This document shows positions 1,669 through 24,349 of a stretch of DNA of 31,392 nucleotides, in pieces (within the stretch, counting starts at the first letter, position 1; each line of letters begins with the position of its first letter). This DNA comes from Promethearchaeia archaeon. Lineage in GTDB: Archaea > Asgardarchaeota > Lokiarchaeia > Sigyniarchaeales > SOKP01. Under the pieces are notes generated by a model. The model did no database searches. It was not told where the DNA came from and saw only the letters and a program-made list of their open reading frames with translations. Position numbers and translations under genes: made by a program. The stretch is from NCBI GenBank assembly GCA_029856145.1, contig JAHQWK010000018.1:1-31392 (forward strand). The letters run 5' to 3'.

Positions 1669-4600
1669 TTATTTTCTCTTTCTCCGTACTACGACAATTA
1701 CTACTACTGCTGCTATACTTATAGCTGTAATAGCTGCGATTGCTATTATAGGTAAAAGAATGTCAGGTGGAGATGGATAATATTTGAATGGAGCATTCGT
1801 AGCTAAAAGACACATTACATATTCTCCAATAGCATATGCGAAAGTACCATTTACTAGAAACCCTGTGCTTTTCTCATACCAAGCTATACCTTCTGGATTA
1901 AACATATCTTCTAGTACCCAGACATCAATTTTCCCATATCCTTGTAAATTATGGACTGACTCATTAGATACTTTAAATATATGTTCTCCCTCTTCATCTA
2001 CCGCTATTGAGATTTCATCACCAATTGAAATATTAGTAAATATCCATAAGGGGGTGCGTATTCCTGAGCCAAAAGCAAAACCCCCAAAAACACTGGACAT
2101 GATTCGTGTTTGACTAAATACATCCCATTGGCCTGTTTGCAAAGGAGTACCTCCGTCATGGTAGAAATAATCGAGATGAAACATTCCCTCAGAAAGATAT
2201 GAATATGAGTAGTCCATAGAATTAGTGTCACCAAATATAGCAAAAGAATAGTCAAGGGTCAAGCCGTCAAAAATATTAATCTTTTTAATAGGGACTAATT
2301 TTTCTACAATATTATTAGCAATATAAGGTTCAATTGGTAAATAGGGTACTGAGGCCTTAAGAGTATAATCACCATACTCCGTAGGAGTCCATTGGTAATT
2401 TATTGTGACAGTTTCGCCAACAAGAAGACTTGGGATAGATTCGGAACCAACTATTATTTCACCTAGATATAGGTATAAACCAACACTGTATTCATCATAG
2501 ATACCTTTATTTGTAACATTCGTATTAATCATATAATCATTATTTGGTTGAGCAAAACTAGGAACGTCTAAAGAAACCTCTAAATCGTGCTCTAAAGATC
2601 CCCACCATGGAGTAAATAATAGCGCAAAATTATCAGTTAAACTATCTAAGTTCTGATAGGAGTTATAGTATCTATTATCTACCCCTAAATTTAATCCACA
2701 AGTGTATCCTCCCGCAGTATAATCGAGATAATCATAATTAAAGATAATTTCTCCAGTTTCATACAATATTACTTCGAAGGATCCGACTAAACTTCCACCA
2801 AAGTGGTAAATATTTAACCATTCTGCAACCCAATATGTATCAAATGATTGAACAAACACATTTACACCAGCAGGATTTAAGTCATCCCAGAATGGTGCGA
2901 TTAAATAATAATGACCCGTATCATCTGAAGGAATAGGTTCATTAAAATATTCAATTGGTGATAAATCAATAAAGCTAAGATATCCATTCGAGCCTAAATA
3001 TATTGTTGAAAACGTCTCATTATAAAAAGTAAAGTCAAAAGGCAATGCAATAGCAGCACTGGAGTCATCTCCTAATGATAATTCAGTTCCTCCAGAAGCA
3101 TCGACCCAACTATATGGAGCACTTACGGTCATAGTATAATTCATATTAGGGTGGAGATTAACTTGCTTTTCCCTATAATTATTTACCGTAAAAGACTCTC
3201 CGGGTAATGAAGGGGTATAAGCAGTGATATTATAAATCTTATATCTTGTTGGAGTCCATAGATAATTAATAATTAATTCTTGATCAACATTAAAAGTAGA
3301 AATCACGTCTGAATCAACAAGTACATCATCAATATACAAATATAAATTGACATTTGTCTCAGTAAATAAACCATTATTTAATACTGTCGCATTAATAATA
3401 TATGATCCATAAATATCTGGACTATCTGGAAGTTCGAGTGAGACATGCAAATCATGATCTAATATTGGATAAGATATAGTAGCATCTCCTTCACCAGAAA
3501 TAACTTTTGCAATCAAATAATATTTACCTGTTTCTGTTGCAGTGTATACGATTACCTCATCTTCTCCTGTATTAGGTGATATACTTTTTGCTAACATTAC
3601 TGGCTCTCCTATTGACGATGGAGTACTGTTATATAGATGCAAATCGAAATCAGCCCCAACTGGTACATCTAATGTAAAAATATATGTTTCTCCTTCGATA
3701 AGGTTCACATAGCACCCTAATGCATGTTTACTAAAAGAATCAATAGAACTTGAGGTTAAATATGCAGTCGTATCTGATCCTAACGTTAATTGGTGTGTAT
3801 ATGCTTCTATAGCAGCATCAACATTTAATCGACCATAACCTTCATGCGTATCTTTCCCCCCGCGATTGAGTAGAGGAGAAAAATAAACACTAGAATGTTC
3901 TCTTATTAATGGATATGTTTCAGTAGCAGACATCAAGAGCAAAGATTTAACACTTTTAGCTTCTTCAGGAGTATAGCCCCAAATCTGATGGCCACCCATG
4001 GCATCAATGACTAGATTTGATGCACCCGCAACAGCAGGAGCTGACATTGAAGTTCCTTGTGCGCCATATAAATCATTATAATAAGAATCTGGAGAATACG
4101 CACCTTCTGCATCATTATAATTAGTATCTGCCGAAAACATTTGTAAATTATTAAAGCTACCTCCTGGAGCAGTAATATCGGGTTTACTTGTGAGACCCGT
4201 ATATGAATCTCCACCTTGGCTACTATAATCTGTAATTTCATCATCGATATTCATAGCAGCTACAGTTATTACATTATCAGCATCTCCGGGGGAACCAATC
4301 AAATTTCCTCCATGACCATCGTTTCCTGCGGATACCACAGTTACAATTCCATATTCAACAGCGTTATTTACCGCAGTAATCAAACCTGTATCTCCCGGTC
4401 CGCCTCCTAGACTCAAAGAAATAGTAGTAATATTGTATACCATTCTATTAGTTATTGCCCAATTAATACCATTGATTATATCAGAGCTCCAACCACCACC
4501 ATGTTGATCCAAAACTTTTATTCCCACCAAACGGGCATCAGGAGCAACTCCCTGCCATGGATCGCCACTCCCATAAAGGAGAGGATCAAAAGGCCAGTGA

Positions 4601-5832
4601 ATTTCATTTCTAAATCTTAAATTAAAATCAGTACAATATCCATCTCCAGTATTATCTAATATATTGAGTGCAAATCTAAAAGAATAATCTCCAAGAGAAC
4701 CGCTAGTAACTGTATAAGATAATGTATGTGTCCAAGAATCAGAATTGTCAACATAAGATTCTACTAGGGTATTTTCATGATAGAGATAAGCCCAAAAGTC
4801 AGCATCATCTGAACCAGGTGTAAAATCATCAAATTCACAATTCATTTCAATCACACCAGGAGTATCAACTCTAAATCGTGTCCAATTCAAACTAAGTACT
4901 TGTTCAGGGAGGTTATATCCTGTGTAATCAAAACTATAAGCCGCTGTAGCTACAGAACGATTATTTCCATCATATGAAGGACTTCCTATTCCTGCTGCAA
5001 TTCCACCACAGTGTGAGCCATGACCGTTATCATCATATGGGCTCGGGGATGAACTAACCTCATCACGCCATCCAACAATTTTATAGCTAGAATCACCATC
5101 AGAATAACCTGGGATAAAGAAATTATGTGAATCATCAATTCCAGTATCAATTATTGCGATAGAGCTATATTCATCTCCGTTATAAGAAAGAGTATCCCAA
5201 ACATAAGGTCTAAGATTCATATTTCGGGAAGTATAATACAGATTTGCATGATATATTCTATCTTCTTCAATTAAGAAAGGTATATCCTTTTCTCTTAAGT
5301 TGTCACAGAATTTATTTAGATCTGTATAATCTATACTTCCAGCAAAACCATTAATTGCGACTGTATATTTATTTTTGATTATTCCTCCCAAATCTTCAAA
5401 AAGAAATGAGCAGTATTCATAATCTCCATCAGGAAAAGAAATAATTATAGGAATAGCATCACTAGTAATTAGTAAATTATTAATATTTTTTTCCTTATTA
5501 GGAAAATCAAAAGAATTTTCATTTGGCAATGAAATTGAATCATCTTCCAAACTTTCTTTAATAAAACCAAATTCAGATAAATATTTTAATCTAGTTTCAA
5601 AATAGTCATTAATTCCATTAGTATTTTTATCAACATCTGAAATTAATCCTTCCCATTCATTATTTTCGTTTTTGTTTAGCTGATATTCTTCAAAAGGTAC
5701 TTTTTGTAAATCCGAATTGCTTACTGATTTTTCGAATAAATTAATTGAAGTAGTCGCTATTGGAGAAAAAAGCAACAATATTAACAATAGCAAAAAAAAC
5801 TTAGACTTGTTTTTAGATTTCAGTTTATGCAT
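1669..5832 (-). CDS. Membrane-anchored S8 subtilisin-like serine protease with PPC-like, CARDB/Ig-like and NIDO-like domains
   Basis: Signal peptide. Catalytic motifs IIDTG, HGSHCGG, SAGN and GTSMSAP. PPC-like ADFDLHLY segment. Two HDLxVSL...INATVxNxG CARDB-like repeats. NIDO-like LPFDFTFY...SNGYLSF...IAPFWDDL. C-terminal hydrophobic helix followed by RRKRK. Confidence 0.92.
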   Translation of the reverse strand: MHKLKSKNKSKFFLLLLILLLFSPIATTSINLFEKSVSNSDLQKVPFEEYQLNKNENNEWEGLISDVDKNTNGINDYFETRLKYLSEFGFIKESLEDDSISLPNENSFDFPNKEKNINNLLITSDAIPIIISFPDGDYEYCSFLFEDLGGIIKNKYTVAINGFAGSIDYTDLNKFCDNLREKDIPFLIEEDRIYHANLYYTSRNMNLRPYVWDTLSYNGDEYSSIAIIDTGIDDSHNFFIPGYSDGDSSYKIVGWRDEVSSSPSPYDDNGHGSHCGGIAAGIGSPSYDGNNRSVATAAYSFDYTGYNLPEQVLSLNWTRFRVDTPGVIEMNCEFDDFTPGSDDADFWAYLYHENTLVESYVDNSDSWTHTLSYTVTSGSLGDYSFRFALNILDNTGDGYCTDFNLRFRNEIHWPFDPLLYGSGDPWQGVAPDARLVGIKVLDQHGGGWSSDIINGINWAITNRMVYNITTISLSLGGGPGDTGLITAVNNAVEYGIVTVVSAGNDGHGGNLIGSPGDADNVITVAAMNIDDEITDYSSQGGDSYTGLTSKPDITAPGGSFNNLQMFSADTNYNDAEGAYSPDSYYNDLYGAQGTSMSAPAVAGASNLVIDAMGGHQIWGYTPEEAKSVKSLLLMSATETYPLIREHSSVYFSPLLNRGGKDTHEGYGRLNVDAAIEAYTHQLTLGSDTTAYLTSSSIDSFSKHALGCYVNLIEGETYIFTLDVPVGADFDLHLYNSTPSSIGEPVMLAKSISPNTGEDEVIVYTATETGKYYLIAKVISGEGDATISYPILDHDLHVSLELPDSPDIYGSYIINATVLNNGLFTETNVNLYLYIDDVLVDSDVISTFNVDQELIINYLWTPTRYKIYNITAYTPSLPGESFTVNNYREKQVNLHPNMNYTMTVSAPYSWVDASGGTELSLGDDSSAAIALPFDFTFYNETFSTIYLGSNGYLSFIDLSPIEYFNEPIPSDDTGHYYLIAPFWDDLNPAGVNVFVQSFDTYWVAEWLNIYHFGGSLVGSFEVILYETGEIIFNYDYLDYTAGGYTCGLNLGVDNRYYNSYQNLDSLTDNFALLFTPWWGSLEHDLEVSLDVPSFAQPNNDYMINTNVTNKGIYDEYSVGLYLYLGEIIVGSESIPSLLVGETVTINYQWTPTEYGDYTLKASVPYLPIEPYIANNIVEKLVPIKKINIFDGLTLDYSFAIFGDTNSMDYSYSYLSEGMFHLDYFYHDGGTPLQTGQWDVFSQTRIMSSVFGGFAFGSGIRTPLWIFTNISIGDEISIAVDEEGEHIFKVSNESVHNLQGYGKIDVWVLEDMFNPEGIAWYEKSTGFLVNGTFAYAIGEYVMCLLATNAPFKYYPSPPDILLPIIAIAAITAISIAAVVVIVVVRRKRK

Positions 5833-6232: not shown

Positions 6233-9200
6233 TTGCCTATGAAAAGATTAAAAAAAAAATCTAATCTATTAATCATTGGACTAATTTTTGTCAGTTATTT
6301 TGTAATTCCGTCTACTGGAATACAATTAAATTATTCTAATAGTTATAATCAAGCAGAGAAAGATACAATTAAGTTAGAATCTTTACCTTCCTCTCTAACT
6401 TCGAAAACTAGTACAAGTAATATTAATTTAGAAAGTTATTCCAAATACAAGTATTCTAAGTTTGATAATGATCTAAATGAATATTTAACAAATCTAACTT
6501 TAAATCAAAATGAAAACCTAGAATATATACAAATTATTGTTCTATTTGAGGATTTCGTTAGTAAAGAAGAACGTATTGAAATTTTGGATTCCATATTTGA
6601 TGATTATAAATTTGTAAGAAATTATGATATAATACCTGGGACTTACATAAAAATCAATCCTAGTCAACTGATTACTAATGAGCATGTAATAGATGGTATA
6701 GAATCAATAAAAAAGATCTATAAATCTAAATTTTATCAAAATCCTTATATATTAGAGGAAAATCCTCAAACTAGTGCTTTAAGTTCTGAAGATTATTCTA
6801 ATTGGTGGGTTTCTGCGGTCGGAGCAGAAAATCTATCTTACGATGGATCAGGTGTGAAAGTAGCTGTAATTGATACTGGAATATACAATCATCCTGATTT
6901 GAATATAATAAATAATAGTAATTTTGTAACTGATGAGAGCCAATTAGACTATAATGATGATGTTGGCCATGGTACTCATGTAGGGGGGATTATTGCTGGT
7001 GATGGAGGAGGATCCTCAGGTCAATATCGTGGTATAGCGCCCGGTACTCTCTTAATTAATGCAAGAGCCGGAAATGCAAGTGGACTAGATGAATTTGATA
7101 TAGTAAGTGCTATTGAATGGAGTTCTGCGCCAACAGGCTCAATGGGTGCGGGGGCAGATATCATTTCAATGAGTTTTGGTGGAGGGTATCCAATTATTTC
7201 GGATTTAATAACTCATGCGATTTCGACAGCAAGAGATCTTTGGGGCGTTATTTTTGTATCATCAGCAGGTAATTCTGGTCCAGAATATTTTTCAGGGTCC
7301 ACTCCTGCCTCTGGTGTTGATGTTATTGCTGTAGGTGCAACGGATAAAAATGATGAGTTAGCTTCATTTAGTAGTTGGGGGCCTAGTTATAGATATTTAG
7401 GGTATCCTGATGTAGTTGCTCCTGGAGTAAATATAATTTCTACAGATGCACCAAATTCCATTATTTCAAAAGAACAGCATTATATAGGAGATTTTTTCAA
7501 TTTTCCTGCTGATGCAGATTATATCCCTCTTAGTGGAACGAGTATGTCTTGTCCTGTTGTTGCTGGGGCATTAGCAATTTTATTAGACGCTTATCCTAAC
7601 ATATCTCCTGAAACTGCTAGAATTGCTTTAATAGAAGGATCAAGAAAACTCTCTAATGAAAATGATGATGATTTTCTTAAATCTGGAGCAGGAATAATAA
7701 ATGTGAGTGCTTCTCTTGATTACTTGAATTATCTAAATGATACAATACCGGATATTAATGATATAATAAAACTTTATCCTGACGAGCTTCCGGTTAAACC
7801 ATATGATTTATTAAACTTTCCAGGAGATCACCAAAAATTTAATTTAACTGTAATTTCAGGTAACAATACAACCTATGACGTTGAAATTCCTAATAATATA
7901 CAAGGAGTAGCAATTTCATTTGATAAGTTCCCCTCTCCATTTTCTGAATCTGGAATAAGTTTTTTGGAATTGGAGATTGAAATTAATAAGGACGCTTTAC
8001 CGGGGATAAGAAATTTCCAAATTAACCTAACAGTTGGAGGGCAAATTTATGATAGTGTTAATATTCTATTGGATATTCGATTACCAGAATACCGGATACT
8101 AATGGAATCATATCATGGTTTAAATGATTGGTTTCCAGAGCTTTCAAAATTCTATCAAATGGGTTTTTATGAAGCTATGGCAGATTTTTCTGAATTAAAT
8201 ATATCAATTGACTATGATATGGAATATTGGACTCCGGATTATAATAAGAATTTAAATAATTCAATTTTAACAGAGGAAAGATTAGCTCAATATGATACAA
8301 TATTACTGCAAAACCCTATATTGCCTTATAGTACTTTAGAAATAAAAAATTTAAAGAACTACTTTGAAGATGGGGGTAATTTATTCTTTTTAGGAACTCG
8401 TTATCAAGATTTAGTTACGGAAAATATAAATTATTTATTCTCAAAATTAGGCATAGATATTCAAATTAATGAAGAAAATGTTATGGATGATAATTGGTTA
8501 GGGATAGGAACAAGTGTGAGTTCCCAAAATATAAGCGATTTTGATAATCCAAAACTATTTGATGGTGTTAACAACGTTTTTTGGCAATATGGTAATAGCT
8601 TTACTGTTTCGGGTAATGCCGAGTCAATTGCAACAATTAATAATAAAACAGTAGTTGCTTTATACAATGGAACTTCTCACGGAAAAGGAAACTTAGTAGC
8701 TTTTGGAGATTTACATTGGCTTTATTATGATTATCAATCAACATCCCATACTCAAGACCATATTAATTTACTTAACAATCTTATGGAATTCTTCTTACCA
8801 AAAGAGGAAGTGTCCATTAATATTAATTTAAAAAGAGATCGTATTTCCAATTCAAAAATCGATTTATCCATATATTTAAAGGACCAAAATTCTGAATCTC
8901 CAATAACTCCCTTTGATTATGATTCATTAAAGGTAATTATTAAAAATTCTACCTTTTCAAAATCAATCATATTAAATGCAACATTCTCAGATAATGGAAT
9001 ATATTTCAATAATTCATATAATCTACCCCATCCAAGTTATTCACCTTATATTATTGAAGTAAATCTAACAATTGGTTCAAATGAATATAGTAAAATTTCT
9101 AAAATTCTCTATTTTGACAAAATTGAAGTGCCGCAGATCGTCGATTTATCGAGTGATGATACAGATATAACGAGAGCTCCTGGAGATTCAACAGATTTAA

Positions 9201-10246
9201 TAGCTGAGATGGATAACTCAACTTACGGTAATATAACAGGATATCTATCAATATATTCCTATTCATTTTACAATTCAAAAAAATCTGTTAATCAAACCCT
9301 TCTACTTAGTCCTCAAGGTTCAAATTTATATAGCACTAATTTTGATCCAGGTATATCAGATCCTTCTGGATTTGGAATCTATTACATTATTCCCGTAAAC
9401 TCAAATTATACTAATCCAAATTCACCTAGATACGTGTTTGAAATTGTTAATAATCCACCTGAAATTTTAGAAGCAAGTTCTAGTTTCAATTTGGCTGGTT
9501 ATGCTGAAGTTTATTTTGATGAAACTGAATCTGATGAAGGTTCCTATGTATATACCGCAACTCAAGGTGATAGCTTCAATTTTGCTGTAAACGTAAGAGA
9601 TTCAGTAAATTATGAAGATTCTAGTTCTGACATGAGAGTATTTGTAAACTTATTTGTTTGTTCTGTATCCGATAATTATATCTTTTTAATTTTTCCACAA
9701 TCTATTGAGGTAGCTGAGCTAAATTATGAATCTATATCTGGAAAATATGAAGGTTCTTTTATAATTCCAGATACAATGCGATATAACTCTATATCAGGAA
9801 CAAAGGCAATTCCAACAGCCGCGGGTTTTGATTTTAATACTAATGAAGGGTATTTAAGTATACTTTATCTTACGGTCTTCGATAGTGAAGGGGGAACTGA
9901 TGAATTCATTATCATTTTAACTATCTCAGAACGTCCTTTTGATTTTTCTCTAATTATCATAATTGTAATTTCAATCGTAGCTCTTTTAGGTGTAGTTTGT
10001 CTGATGGTCTATTATGCAAGAAAGAAAAGATATCCAAGAGCAACTCAAGTTCAACCAAGATATGAAGAATATTATTACAGACCTTCATATGACGAACCAG
10101 AGGAAGAAGCCTATGTAACACCTGAATCCTTATCTACAGTCGGTGCCTCATTTTATTGTCCTTTCTGTGGAGACCCTATCAAGGTTCCAAAAAAATTCTG
10201 TCCAAATTGCGGAGAATCACTAGAATTTTTTCAACAAGATGAGTAA
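6233..10246 (+). CDS. Type I membrane S8 subtilase with Site-1-protease-like architecture (S8, Ig-like, GATase-like domain, TM, cytoplasmic zinc ribbon)
   Basis: Signal peptide and I9-like prodomain. Motifs VIDTG, HGTHV, SAGN and GTSMS. GATase/DUF4350-like segment RILMESYHG...QYDTILL...GGNLFFLG...GNLVAFGD. TM at about 9944-10015. CPFC-CPNC ribbon at 10157-10210. Start is TTG 6233 or ATG 6239. Confidence 0.9.
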   Translation: MPMKRLKKKSNLLIIGLIFVSYFVIPSTGIQLNYSNSYNQAEKDTIKLESLPSSLTSKTSTSNINLESYSKYKYSKFDNDLNEYLTNLTLNQNENLEYIQIIVLFEDFVSKEERIEILDSIFDDYKFVRNYDIIPGTYIKINPSQLITNEHVIDGIESIKKIYKSKFYQNPYILEENPQTSALSSEDYSNWWVSAVGAENLSYDGSGVKVAVIDTGIYNHPDLNIINNSNFVTDESQLDYNDDVGHGTHVGGIIAGDGGGSSGQYRGIAPGTLLINARAGNASGLDEFDIVSAIEWSSAPTGSMGAGADIISMSFGGGYPIISDLITHAISTARDLWGVIFVSSAGNSGPEYFSGSTPASGVDVIAVGATDKNDELASFSSWGPSYRYLGYPDVVAPGVNIISTDAPNSIISKEQHYIGDFFNFPADADYIPLSGTSMSCPVVAGALAILLDAYPNISPETARIALIEGSRKLSNENDDDFLKSGAGIINVSASLDYLNYLNDTIPDINDIIKLYPDELPVKPYDLLNFPGDHQKFNLTVISGNNTTYDVEIPNNIQGVAISFDKFPSPFSESGISFLELEIEINKDALPGIRNFQINLTVGGQIYDSVNILLDIRLPEYRILMESYHGLNDWFPELSKFYQMGFYEAMADFSELNISIDYDMEYWTPDYNKNLNNSILTEERLAQYDTILLQNPILPYSTLEIKNLKNYFEDGGNLFFLGTRYQDLVTENINYLFSKLGIDIQINEENVMDDNWLGIGTSVSSQNISDFDNPKLFDGVNNVFWQYGNSFTVSGNAESIATINNKTVVALYNGTSHGKGNLVAFGDLHWLYYDYQSTSHTQDHINLLNNLMEFFLPKEEVSININLKRDRISNSKIDLSIYLKDQNSESPITPFDYDSLKVIIKNSTFSKSIILNATFSDNGIYFNNSYNLPHPSYSPYIIEVNLTIGSNEYSKISKILYFDKIEVPQIVDLSSDDTDITRAPGDSTDLIAEMDNSTYGNITGYLSIYSYSFYNSKKSVNQTLLLSPQGSNLYSTNFDPGISDPSGFGIYYIIPVNSNYTNPNSPRYVFEIVNNPPEILEASSSFNLAGYAEVYFDETESDEGSYVYTATQGDSFNFAVNVRDSVNYEDSSSDMRVFVNLFVCSVSDNYIFLIFPQSIEVAELNYESISGKYEGSFIIPDTMRYNSISGTKAIPTAAGFDFNTNEGYLSILYLTVFDSEGGTDEFIIILTISERPFDFSLIIIIVISIVALLGVVCLMVYYARKKRYPRATQVQPRYEEYYYRPSYDEPEEEAYVTPESLSTVGASFYCPFCGDPIKVPKKFCPNCGESLEFFQQDE

Positions 10247-19845: not shown

Positions 19846-21573
19846 ATGTCGACAAAATTAGGAGAAGAAAACATATTACGGAAAAAAGTGTGGAAAATTA
19901 TCAATTTAACCCAAGCTAATCAATTATTTGTTCACTTTAAAGATTTGAGCATTAAATATTTAGGTGAGAAAAGTAGTAAAGTAAGTACAAAAAAATTACC
20001 AGAAATATTGTCGCTATGTGTATTGAATGCTATAGTTCCTAATTCTGCAATGCTTTTAGTAGGTGGGCATGGAGGTGGTAAAACGACACTCCTCAAGCTC
20101 TTAGGACGTATGTTTACTGCTACTTCTCTAAATGAAATTGAAAATTCAATTATAAGAGGACACCCACAATTAACTGAAGAGAAACTTATTGGGACACTTA
20201 AACTTGGTAAGTTAATGAAAGAAGGTGAGGAAGAGGTTGTATGGAGACAATTTGTTACAAATTTTTGGAAAATTATAGATGAGGTAAATCGGTTAACTCC
20301 ATATGCTCAAGATATCCTTTTATCATTACTCGCTGAAGGTACTGTTAAATATTACGATTCAATAATAGCAATTAATAAATACTGCTTATTTGCTACTATA
20401 AATCCTCATGATGTTGGTACATTTGAACTATCCCATCCATTCTTAGATAGATTTGGAATCTCTGTTCCGATTACTATGCCGGGAAGTCATGATTTACAGA
20501 TTATTTTAACAGGGAAAGATGAAAAATATAGTGGGCGAGATGAATTAATAGAAGTTCCACAAATCTTAACTATTGATGAGTTGATGGAAATTTGGTATTA
20601 TGTTAATAAAATAACTTTCAACTTTGATGTTAATAACTATATACATGCTATAATTAGAGAATTCACATTATGTTCGAGGGTTGATAAAGGAAACACTGAA
20701 GATTTAAAACCTAGCACTGGATTATGTTCAGGGTGTCATTTTAACACAACCCAGAACGTTTGTAATAAAATTGATTCAATTCTAAGTGTAAGAGTTGCAA
20801 AAGATCTATTAAGATATTCAAAAGCATTAGCATGGTTAGTAGGAATAAACAAGATTGATGTTAATATAGTAAATACAATTGCACCTTATGTAATTTCGCA
20901 CAGAGCAGTATATGTAAAAAGAGAAGTAGCTAAAGCTCCATATTTTGGAAATAAATATGAATTTTCTAAAAGTATTTTAAACACCATCCAAAAAAGGTTT
21001 AAAACTCGTGAAGCATGTTATCAAATTTCTGAGAGATTTCGTCAAGGAAATCCTAAAGATAACGATTTAACAGAATTGAAAAAATTTGAGAAGAATGATT
21101 TAATAGTAAAATTTGACTTAATTCCGTTTGTAAATTCAGTTAATAATAAGAAATATCCCCCAATTGCCCAACAAATACAAGAAGCATCTAAGAAAGGAGA
21201 TATTCATAAACTGGCTGAAATTCGAAATCATCTTTTAGAAGAAATCGATTTCCCTAATAGGGGGGACCTAATCGGATGGTGTAATCGAGAGCTTTTTAAG
21301 CAAACAGTTACAGATTATGTCATCAAATATTTGTACTGGAAGGAAGTATGGGCAGATATCGCAGCTGAATTCTCTAATTTAGATCAATCATTAAAGGAAG
21401 CTTTTAGTCAAAGACAAACTAAACAAATTCGTACTGAAGATATGCTAATTGAAATTAATGTTACGGGAACTAAAGAAGATTCATTAGTAAATATTCAAAT
21501 TTCTGGTGGTTCTGAGGCTTTAAAGTTAAGATCGATATTAGATCGTTCAGAATATTTACAAAAAGAAGAATAA
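19846..21573 (+). CDS. MoxR-type AAA+ ATPase with a Cys4 insertion and a C-terminal extension
   Basis: Walker A GGHGGGKT, Walker B IIDEVNR, sensor-1 ATINP, Arg finger LDRF, sensor-2 SVR, and PYVISHR. Confidence 0.92.
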   Translation: MSTKLGEENILRKKVWKIINLTQANQLFVHFKDLSIKYLGEKSSKVSTKKLPEILSLCVLNAIVPNSAMLLVGGHGGGKTTLLKLLGRMFTATSLNEIENSIIRGHPQLTEEKLIGTLKLGKLMKEGEEEVVWRQFVTNFWKIIDEVNRLTPYAQDILLSLLAEGTVKYYDSIIAINKYCLFATINPHDVGTFELSHPFLDRFGISVPITMPGSHDLQIILTGKDEKYSGRDELIEVPQILTIDELMEIWYYVNKITFNFDVNNYIHAIIREFTLCSRVDKGNTEDLKPSTGLCSGCHFNTTQNVCNKIDSILSVRVAKDLLRYSKALAWLVGINKIDVNIVNTIAPYVISHRAVYVKREVAKAPYFGNKYEFSKSILNTIQKRFKTREACYQISERFRQGNPKDNDLTELKKFEKNDLIVKFDLIPFVNSVNNKKYPPIAQQIQEASKKGDIHKLAEIRNHLLEEIDFPNRGDLIGWCNRELFKQTVTDYVIKYLYWKEVWADIAAEFSNLDQSLKEAFSQRQTKQIRTEDMLIEINVTGTKEDSLVNIQISGGSEALKLRSILDRSEYLQKEE

Positions 21574-21590
21574 ATGAATTAATATATAAA

Positions 21591-23306
21591 ATGATTCAAT
21601 CGAGAAGAAGAAAAGAGAAAAATATTAAAAAATATTCAGAAAAAGAAAAAAGGACGATAGAATTAGCTAAAATTGCATGGGCTAAGACATTAAAAGAATT
21701 CTATTATCCCCCTTTAAATGATCCTAATTATATATTTGATTACATTCATTTAGAGGGATTTTATATTGATCCTGAACATCAATGGCAAATTACAATGAAT
21801 CTAGCTAATACACCACTACTTAAAGAGGATCAGGAATATATTGATTATTTCTATATTATATCACTTCACGAAGTCTCTCATTATCAAATCATCCCGTATG
21901 ATGGATTAATCAATGCAAAATTACTTAGGGTTGCGATGAAACATGTGAATCAGAATTATGCACCTATAGTAGTAAACATTTTTGCAGATTTAATTATTGA
22001 TACTAAATTATACCAAAAATTTCCTAATCTTATTGAATGGGAGATGATTGAAACCTATAAACATATAACTAGTAAGGGCTCAATCAGCCATTTTAGTAAG
22101 TTCTTATTTCGAGCTTATGAGAAAATGTGGAATAAAGATATTCTAGGAGATGAGGCACTTAAAGAAATGGATCCTTTAGCAGAAAGAATAACTAAAATAA
22201 TTCTTAAAGATTTCGAAGATGAGTCAACTTGGGAAAAAAAAGTATCTCAAGTTGCAAAACTTTTAAATAGTTTAATTCAGGATACTTTTACGTTAATAGG
22301 AACTAGAGGAATTATAGATAAAAATAAAGAAAAAAGAAAAAGTCCTGGTGGCGCATTTGTAGAATTTCCTAAAGATGTATTAGAAATAATGGATAACCCT
22401 TTAGAAAATAAAAATGCAGATAAATTAAGAGAAGGTAATCTCGATGATCTGCAACAAAAATCAGAAGAATTTGCTAAAGATATCCCTTATTCCGAATTTG
22501 GCGGACCTGCACGTCAAGCAGGGATTTTAATTGATGGAAACGCTTTAGCTACTTGGTATCGAGGCTTAGCAAAAAATCTAATTGAAATAAAAATTTATGA
22601 AGAAAAACCAGGAGGGCAATTACCTATCTTTCCAGAGGTTTGGCGGATTGGTGATAGAATTGAAGAATTGGATATTATTCAGAGTTTATTAAATAGTCCG
22701 GTAATAATACCTAATATCACTACAAGAAAATGGGCATATGAAGAAGGACCGGGGCACTTAGTAGAAAAACAAGTTCCTGATCTATTAATTGTTTTAGATT
22801 CTTCGGGTTCAATGAAATGGAGTTATACATCTAGATCTATTAGGGGTAAAGGCCCATATCATACCGCTTTAGTAGCTGCGTTTGCTTCTTTGCATTATGC
22901 GGCAAAAAAAGGTGCTAAATTTAGTATAATCAATTTTTCCAATAGGGCGGATATTTGTCAGTGGACCTCTGATTATAAAAAGGCCGAAAAGGTCTTATTG
23001 AGGTATCAGGGGGGAGGTACATTTTTACCAATTAAAGAAATCGCAAGTCAATGTGAAAAAGCAGAAAGAAATGCTCTTGTGTTTATAATCACTGATTTTG
23101 GTATATATAATTGGAGCAAAGCAAAAAAAATAATGATAAACCTTGCTCAAAAAGGCCATAAAATAATAGGTTTTTTCATCGGGTCAACTAGAATACCCAA
23201 AGAAAAATTTAAGAACTTACTGGATAAAGTAAAATTTTATGGGATAGAGAATCCTAAAGATTTAATTAATCTAGTTATTAAAGAAGTTCATGATAACTAT
23301 TCATAA
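21591..23306 (+). CDS. HEXXH metallopeptidase-like domain + C-terminal VWA domain (DUF2201-like)
   Basis: LHEVSH (21864-21881) followed by NIFADLIID. MIDAS motif LDSSGS...GGT...ITD. Lies 17 nt after the MoxR gene. Confidence 0.88.
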   Translation: MIQSRRRKEKNIKKYSEKEKRTIELAKIAWAKTLKEFYYPPLNDPNYIFDYIHLEGFYIDPEHQWQITMNLANTPLLKEDQEYIDYFYIISLHEVSHYQIIPYDGLINAKLLRVAMKHVNQNYAPIVVNIFADLIIDTKLYQKFPNLIEWEMIETYKHITSKGSISHFSKFLFRAYEKMWNKDILGDEALKEMDPLAERITKIILKDFEDESTWEKKVSQVAKLLNSLIQDTFTLIGTRGIIDKNKEKRKSPGGAFVEFPKDVLEIMDNPLENKNADKLREGNLDDLQQKSEEFAKDIPYSEFGGPARQAGILIDGNALATWYRGLAKNLIEIKIYEEKPGGQLPIFPEVWRIGDRIEELDIIQSLLNSPVIIPNITTRKWAYEEGPGHLVEKQVPDLLIVLDSSGSMKWSYTSRSIRGKGPYHTALVAAFASLHYAAKKGAKFSIINFSNRADICQWTSDYKKAEKVLLRYQGGGTFLPIKEIASQCEKAERNALVFIITDFGIYNWSKAKKIMINLAQKGHKIIGFFIGSTRIPKEKFKNLLDKVKFYGIENPKDLINLVIKEVHDNYS

Positions 23307-23416: not shown

Positions 23417-24349
23417 ATGGCTAACTTTTGTGTAAACTGTGGAAAGCCTATACAAAGTAATTGGAAATTTTGTCCATATTGCTCAAATCATGCTTATCAA
23501 GCGCCGAAGGATATTTCTCAGTTAACCACAGAAAAACCAAGTATCGGAGCTTATGAGTACGTAGACACTCAATCAGTAGAACCAAGTATGCTTGAAACGA
23601 AAAGAAAAGAAAAAAAAAAAAGATTAACAAAAGTTCAAAAAAGAGCAATAGTTATAGGCATTCCAGTAATAGTTGCTGCAATAGTTATACCGATTGTAAG
23701 CATTGCGATATATCAATATCTTTTTCCACAAAAAACTGTATCTTTTTATGTTAATAACGGAAATACTTCGGCATCTTACACGGTTTCAACAACTCGAGAT
23801 ACATTGGATTATTTTAAGAATTCGCCGCATCCCTCTCATACTCACTGGGATCCAGATTTCATAGCAGATGTAATTGAATCCTATTGTACCCCTAATGACA
23901 CAAGAATGCTTCAAATTGCGACAGCAATTCGTTCAAAATGCATCAATCAATATGATTCTGAAGAAGTGGTAAATGGGTTATTAAGCTTTACTCAAGCAAT
24001 TGGTTATAAACTTGAATTTCAAGATCTTGCAGCATATCCAATGGAAACAATTTTTAACCAAGGTGATTGTGAAGATCTATCTATTTTATTTGGATCATTA
24101 GTAGAAGCATTAGGATATGAAGCAATAATTTGTGTAATTAATTATTATGATACAGTTGAAGAACAATGGTTTGGCCATGCTTGTATTGGGGTATATTTAA
24201 ATTTTACTCCAACTTATAGTTATTCTTTTACAGTAAATAGTAAAGAATATTGGATTTGCGAAACGACATACCAAGGATGGATGGTAGGACAATTGCCTGC
24301 ATCTAATCCGAGTTATTATCAAATGCTAGCATATGCATTCATTAATTAA
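23417..24349 (+). CDS. Zinc ribbon + TM + transglutaminase-like (papain-fold) domain protein
   Basis: N-terminal CVNC...CPYC, then a basic run and a TM (AIVIGIPVIVAAIVIPIVSIAIY). GDCED, GHA and CETT give a Cys-His-Glu putative triad. Confidence 0.85.
   Translation: MANFCVNCGKPIQSNWKFCPYCSNHAYQAPKDISQLTTEKPSIGAYEYVDTQSVEPSMLETKRKEKKKRLTKVQKRAIVIGIPVIVAAIVIPIVSIAIYQYLFPQKTVSFYVNNGNTSASYTVSTTRDTLDYFKNSPHPSHTHWDPDFIADVIESYCTPNDTRMLQIATAIRSKCINQYDSEEVVNGLLSFTQAIGYKLEFQDLAAYPMETIFNQGDCEDLSILFGSLVEALGYEAIICVINYYDTVEEQWFGHACIGVYLNFTPTYSYSFTVNSKEYWICETTYQGWMVGQLPASNPSYYQMLAYAFIN

Follow-up and report, generated by a model that had tools for sequence, protein, structure and literature searches.

A membrane-anchored Asgard archaeal subtilase with a three-domain head similar to that of eukaryotic site-1 protease

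An Asgard relative of site-1 protease

We analyzed a window of 31,392 nucleotides from a Promethearchaeia archaeon (assembly GCA_029856145.1, contig JAHQWK010000018.1), in which an intact open reading frame at 6233-10246 (+) encodes a membrane-anchored subtilase of peptidase family S8. The best explanation as a whole, which we hold with modest confidence, is that this protein is a housekeeping protease anchored at the cell surface and a cousin of eukaryotic site-1 protease (S1P, also known as SKI-1 or MBTPS1; MEROPS S08.063; PDB 8UW8, 8UWC and 9CSD) that belongs to the same archaeal radiation. In the modeled structure, an S8 domain, a P-like beta-sandwich and a GIFT domain, together termed the head below, follow each other in the same order and in a similar overall arrangement as in S1P, and the two heads probably share descent. 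Most likely, eukaryotic S1P came from an old, Asgard-centred radiation of S8-P-like-GIFT proteins. Residues are numbered from TTG 6233, which gives 1337 amino acids; the likelier start, ATG 6239, gives 1335 amino acids, which is also the length of database record P0001.

Eukaryotes employ S1P in cholesterol and stress signalling. Among the subtilases that have been characterised, it stands alone as a subgroup (PMC9549277). The occurrence of a GIFT domain in S1P was already known, and among the convertases this subdomain is reported to be peculiar to S1P (PMC11231238). The conserved and mostly single-copy Asgard family, with its matching three-domain head, is a candidate for the prokaryotic source of S1P, and a processing enzyme of the Golgi joins the eukaryotic proteins with Asgard relatives. 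In the literature that we searched, no report connected Asgard archaea to site-1 protease or MBTPS1.

The three-domain head compared with S1P

Human S1P is composed of the S8 domain (187-478), the P-like sandwich (479-616) and the GIFT subdomain (PMC11231238). A model of the corresponding head of the window protein (predicted local distance difference test score, pLDDT, 93.6) had S1P entries 9CSD and 8UW8 as its best Foldseek matches, with template modelling scores of 0.62/0.57. VIA aligned 581 of 684 head residues to 8UW8 190-875 at 5.3 A, and among the entries that it listed only those of S1P spanned all three domains. The fit is loose, and the predicted arrangement resembles that of S1P without being identical to it. 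When the post-catalytic part was modeled alone (residues 489-866, pLDDT 94), the two best Foldseek matches were again S1P (E 5e-14), followed by IFT52, and VIA aligned this model to S1P 478-874, i.e., from the point where the P-like subdomain starts. The VIA Z score was 22.2 for IFT52, which covers the GIFT domain only, versus 18.6 for S1P.

Sequence profiles gave a similar picture. The post-catalytic parts of the family and of S1P matched at a probability of 98.2 (E 4e-14, 242 columns), and a continuous colinear alignment with S1P extended over 472 columns and across both domain junctions. Identity to S1P in the S8, P-like and GIFT domains was about 31%, 17% and 19%, respectively, and in a comparison of language-model features the top three clusters were eukaryotic S1P (score 0.95). 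The S1P set used here consisted of 21 long open frames from metagenomes, which were retrieved with a short motif as the search pattern. Their identification relied on motifs and on their correspondence to published residue numbers of human S1P rather than on Pfam. The alignment also places the sequon N537-L-T539 of the window protein at S1P N515, a glycan site whose loss impairs S1P maturation (PMC11231238); of 40 diverse Asgard rows, 13 have a sequon there.

The original prediction, which was made from the letters of the window, had read the domain order as signal, prodomain, S8, beta domain, GATase-like domain, transmembrane segment and tail, and had claimed colinear similarity to S1P beyond the catalytic core. 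The domain order is borne out by Pfam, hydropathy and the models. All eight archaeal motifs that it quoted are present in the order given, at residues 458, 514, 536, 621, 686, 699, 714 and 819, and each of the S1P counterparts that it gave occurs in 10-18 of the 21 S1P frames. The colinear similarity exceeds chance, as both the post-catalytic profile match and the Foldseek ranking indicate. It had also been considered that the post-catalytic match might be no better than that to generic domains of this type. This is true of the GIFT domain alone, which fits generic GIFTs at least as well, but not of the whole post-catalytic part, which ranks S1P first.

Comparison with other known systems helps to define what is shared with S1P. 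Besides the three head domains, S1P and the window protein have in common a signal, a propeptide, the catalytic residues, the aligned N515 sequon and one C-terminal helix followed by a basic cytoplasmic start; they differ in that the window protein has an additional stalk of 380 residues and a zinc-ribbon tail, and no SREBP-type substrate was found for it. Tk-SP of Thermococcus kodakarensis (PDB 3AFG and 9UES; pyrolysin group) is the best match in sequence among solved structures for the propeptide and S8 domain (E 3e-51). However, this match stops after the first C-terminal sandwich, and the GIFT domain, the stalk and the membrane anchor are all missing from Tk-SP. Bacillus Vpr (PDB 8JMW) also has an S8 domain followed by a similar beta-sandwich, but lacks a GIFT domain and a membrane anchor. 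Conversely, IFT52, OST48/Wbp1 and GldG share the fold of residues 618-860, with IFT52 as the best single-domain match, but have neither a protease domain nor a preceding P-like sandwich. For these GIFT-domain proteins, see Beatson and Ponting 2004, cited in PMC11231238.

Phylogenetic position of S1P

In the S8 tree, the window protein fell within an Asgard clade of 22 rows (99/87). A separate group (99/95) was formed by 25 ordinary S8 proteins, most of them bacterial. S1P joined, at 100/94, a giant Asgard protein of 2,586 residues, referred to here as L144 (L144:4999-12759 (+), contig 2, GCA_019056805.1). The two were again paired in the three-domain tree (96/94), and in three S8 trees S1P was never located inside the bacterial clade. 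L144 has S8, P-like and GIFT domains, additional outer domains that together make up about 1,700 residues, and a single helix; no close relative of it was found in 400 Asgard genomes. It is also the only Asgard row that has equivalents of S1P residues W288, D291 and V415. Seven long-branch rows and near-duplicates were left out of these trees.

We then used approximately unbiased (AU) tests, with groups picked after the first tree had been seen. Grouping of S1P with the 22-row core clade was not rejected (p 0.32). In the three-domain tree, grouping with the Loki subgroup to which the window protein belongs was rejected (p 0.010). Grouping with a Heimdall-type subgroup was also rejected (p 0.005). 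Since the Loki grouping is rejected and L144 is nearer, the window protein appears to be a cousin of S1P and not its direct orthologue, and L144 is a better candidate for the sister lineage of S1P than the window gene. Of the original prediction, the homology to S1P and the S1P-like build of the head are supported, and the family is pan-Asgard; the reading as a direct counterpart is not supported. The trees place S1P among archaeal subtilases and favor an archaeal origin of S1P but do not prove it. That eukaryotic S1P descends from this Asgard family we consider fairly probable.

Several observations weigh against this reading. Pfam models MBTPS1_3rd and MBTPS1_4th had no match above the cut-off anywhere in the genome. 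The GIFT domain of S1P matched stand-alone GIFTs better (E 1e-21) than the GIFT domain of the family (E 5e-14), and the P-like domain taken alone matched S1P at E 0.03, which equals the control. The S8 profile of S1P gave 162 bits with some bacterial S8 domains versus 91 for the window protein, and S8 scores by themselves do not single out the family. S1P and L144 are both on long branches; when L144 was removed, S1P shifted to a position beside other archaeal S8 proteins, which was unsupported. The grouping of S1P with ordinary S8 proteins was not rejected by the AU test (p 0.079). In searches of solved structures with the post-catalytic part, a single sequence did not find S1P; with the family profile, S1P ranked behind IFT52 and reached no better than E 0.002. 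MBTPS1_4th was matched weakly by 12 of 55 family members (best E 1e-7). Taken singly, then, the domains do not point to S1P in these comparisons, and what is shared appears to be their contiguous fusion.

It might be argued that this fusion arose twice, with a mobile S8 domain, an Ig-like sandwich and a GIFT domain being joined separately in eukaryotes and in Asgard archaea. GIFT domains are indeed generic and many stand-alone ones occur in Asgard genomes, an S8 domain followed by a similar sandwich is also seen in Vpr (Z 11.8), the same modules occur in another layout in a Nitrososphaerales protein (see below), and the AU result for ordinary S8 proteins is compatible with such an assembly. 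However, the colinear alignment runs across both junctions, the three-domain arrangement and the aligned sequon are held in common, the S1P-type S8 motifs at W288, D291 and V415 have equivalents in an Asgard paralogue, and S1P stays outside of the bacterial clade in all three S8 trees. With these observations we regard convergent assembly as quite unlikely.

Distribution in Asgard archaea and beyond

The post-catalytic module was detected at E < 1e-25 in 207 of 301 Asgard genomes, representing 26 of 30 families and mostly in one copy. A part of these matches are longer paralogues that carry an insert after the S8 domain. In two Asgard paralogues of about 1,420 residues (L145:1121-5362 and L148:1297-5616), an insertion of some 400 residues separates S8 from the P-like/GIFT module. 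Full-length relatives carry the NCBI labels Promethearchaeota, Loki-, Thor-, Hermod-, Odin-, Heimdall- and Hodarchaeota, from which the source genome is Asgard and most likely Loki-type. In four Asgard genomes of 1.3-1.4 Mb, the only S8 candidate is a family member. In the reciprocal search, the S1P post-catalytic profile gave eight weak matches in the 301 Asgard genomes, seven of them in the family. When all species genomes of GTDB were scanned with a pattern, a single locus was obtained, which belongs to the family and comes from Heimdallarchaeota. With the divergent member P0215 as the query, nothing but P0215 itself was recovered, and the post-catalytic part had no match on plasmids. The most S1P-like overall layout belongs to a member of 807 residues (P0243/P0273, L149:3161-5614 (+)), in which the helix follows straight after GIFT and there is no stalk; one member of its cluster is labelled Borrarchaeum.

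The contiguous S8-P-like-GIFT fusion was found, within our sample, only in Asgard-labelled or unlabelled proteins. The genome-by-genome survey covered Asgard genomes, and hence we do not claim that the family is Asgard-specific. A protein labelled Nitrososphaerales (P0352, L106:5001-8615) has the order S8, GIFT, Ig, P-like and GIFT, i.e., the same modules in a different layout. Because of this protein, the wider S8-P-like-GIFT radiation appears to be archaeal and not strictly Asgard.

Catalytic residues and substrate pocket

The window protein scored 163.6 bits with PF00082 (cut-off 21.8) and, with its triad and oxyanion Asn, is assigned to peptidase S8A as a pyrolysin-type subtilase. D214, H246, S437 and the oxyanion N347 align with S1P D218, H249, S414 and N338. 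In the alignment of 40 diverse family members all four residues are invariant, and triad motifs are kept in all 187 family sequences. Since the triad and the oxyanion Asn are invariant, the enzyme is probably active.

The pocket of S1P that accommodates R-x-(L/I/V)-(L/K) is formed by T286, D312, D315, N348, D339, Q282 and I308 (PMC12067269). None of these is kept in the window protein, in which the aligned residues are E287, I321, S323, T357, S348, G284 and F315, respectively. The loop at S1P 312-315 is gappy in the alignment, so that D324 may stand for D315 and D312 has no true match. S1P F252 and V415 are likewise not retained. In addition, an RxxL-type motif before the mature start was found in one of 162 family members versus 10 of 21 S1P frames. 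Because both the pocket residues and the self-cleavage motif are missing, the RxxL-type specificity envisaged at the outset is not supported, and the specificity of the archaeal enzyme is likely to be unlike that of S1P. It becomes testable which features of S1P are old (the head layout and the glycan site) and which might be eukaryotic additions (the RxxL pocket and SPRING dependence).

Possible functions at the cell surface

A C-terminal helix was predicted, by hydropathy only, in 160 of 162 full-length members, which suggests the same type I topology as in S1P. We suggest that the window protein is an exported, probably glycosylated and active subtilase held in the cell membrane by this one helix. 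From the general biology of subtilases, it would fold on its propeptide after export, remove the propeptide by itself and then, lifted on its stalk, cut proteins on the outside of the membrane. Because the family is nearly universal and mostly single-copy in Asgard genomes, lacks a fixed gene neighborhood (the neighborhoods differ between genomes) and is anchored, we lean towards a housekeeping role, in which the enzyme would act in the maturation or turnover of proteins that the cell itself secretes or displays on its surface. It also becomes testable which proteins are processed at the surface of an Asgard cell.

Alternatively, the enzyme might serve in feeding and break down protein of the sediment at the cell surface; GIFT would then be a binding module and the stalk a spacer. 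Protein is catabolised by some Lokiarchaeota (PMC9123169), the closest solved S8 protein by sequence is the degradative Tk-SP, and the subtilisin-like Gly and Ser at S1P-specific pocket positions suggest a broad specificity. However, the same paper cautions that protein catabolism is not predicted by the presence of such genes, no linkage to peptide transporters was seen in the loci examined, and the mostly single and apparently vertical copy across Asgard classes, reduced genomes included, is unlike the patchy occurrence of other S8 proteins. A feeding function thus seems unlikely.

The original prediction had pointed to S1P/S2P-like signalling, in which the protease would make the first cut by clipping the outer domain of a tethered regulator and an M50 protease would then free the DNA-binding part. 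Parts for such a cascade do occur. The genome has one M50 match (C18:53435-54436 (-), locus L162), a protein of 333 amino acids with an AN1-like zinc finger at its N-terminus and a linker rich in Tyr, Pro and Gln. There are also membrane-tethered proteins with tandem winged helix-turn-helix (HTH) domains at C9:557781-559040 (+) and C19:70593-71312 (+). The former, with an outer domain of about 190 amino acids, one helix and two HTH domains, is a candidate for regulated proteolysis, and the anchor and head of the protease match those of S1P. However, each of the 14 control genomes also had matches to the M50 and HTH families, regulators with transmembrane segments are common among prokaryotes (PMC10269533), and neither an M50 protease nor a tethered regulator adjoins the protease gene here or at five other loci. 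The M50 protein is small and carries the AN1 finger, a search for basic helix-loop-helix proteins, which had no positive control, gave no match in the genome, and the S1P pocket residues are absent. The cascade is therefore a very unlikely role for this enzyme. Less probable still is the joint reading that S1P descends from the family and that the archaeal enzyme makes the first outer cut in tethered HTH regulators ahead of M50; if true, two-step signalling of the S1P/S2P type would be older than eukaryotes.

Gene layout and neighborhood

The features of the protease gene are listed in Table 1. Within the GIFT domain, the Pfam IFT52_GIFT match covers residues 673-750 (E 7e-8).

Table 1. Features of the protease gene in the window
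Feature	Position	Strand	Basis
Gene, type I membrane S8 protease with S1P-like head	6239..10246	+	Open reading frame and record length of 1335 aa
Basic N-terminus with a hydrophobic stretch that is probably a signal peptide or signal anchor	6239..6322 (approximate boundary)	+	Hydropathy peak at residues 12-30
Prodomain, Tk-SP N-propeptide-like, without RxxL motif before mature start	6323..6781 (approximate boundaries)	+	Match to Tk-SP-type propeptide, E 9e-4
S8 catalytic domain	6782..7732	+	Pfam S8, residues 205-475, E 8e-48
Beta-sandwich at the position of the S1P P-like subdomain, with N537-L-T sequon	7733..8083	+	Model and profile alignment
GIFT (GATase-like) domain, type also in S1P, IFT52 and OST48	8084..8812	+	Pfam IFT52_GIFT and model
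Stalk, ~380 residues, without Pfam match	8813..9946	+	Conserved in Loki subgroup, absent from S1P
Single transmembrane helix, then basic stop-transfer patch	9953..10009	+	Hydropathy, residues 1241-1259
Cytoplasmic tail: Tyr/acidic stretch, then CxxC-CxxC zinc ribbon (10157-10213)	10019..10243	+	Pfam, residues 1308-1329

The zinc-ribbon tail is retained in 134 of 162 members. The same CxxCG-CxxCG ribbon terminates 16 membrane proteins of the genome, i.e., the protease and 15 others, and the tail is a generic Asgard tail; we considered it as a specific eukaryote-type sorting signal and rejected this on account of its commonness. A transglutaminase-like membrane protein of 310 amino acids in the window carries the same zinc ribbon at its N-terminus (23417-23490).

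On one side, the neighbor of the gene is an unrelated S8 gene in back-to-back orientation, and rpiA and purE are located downstream. This other S8 gene (1669-5832 (-), divergently transcribed) encodes a second membrane-anchored protease of 1387 amino acids, which has a large insert in its catalytic domain, PPC/CARDB domains and no GIFT, and whose layout is unrelated. Further along the window, at 19846-23306 (+), a gene for a MoxR-like AAA+ ATPase is followed by one for a vWA-domain protein, as judged by eye from the translations.

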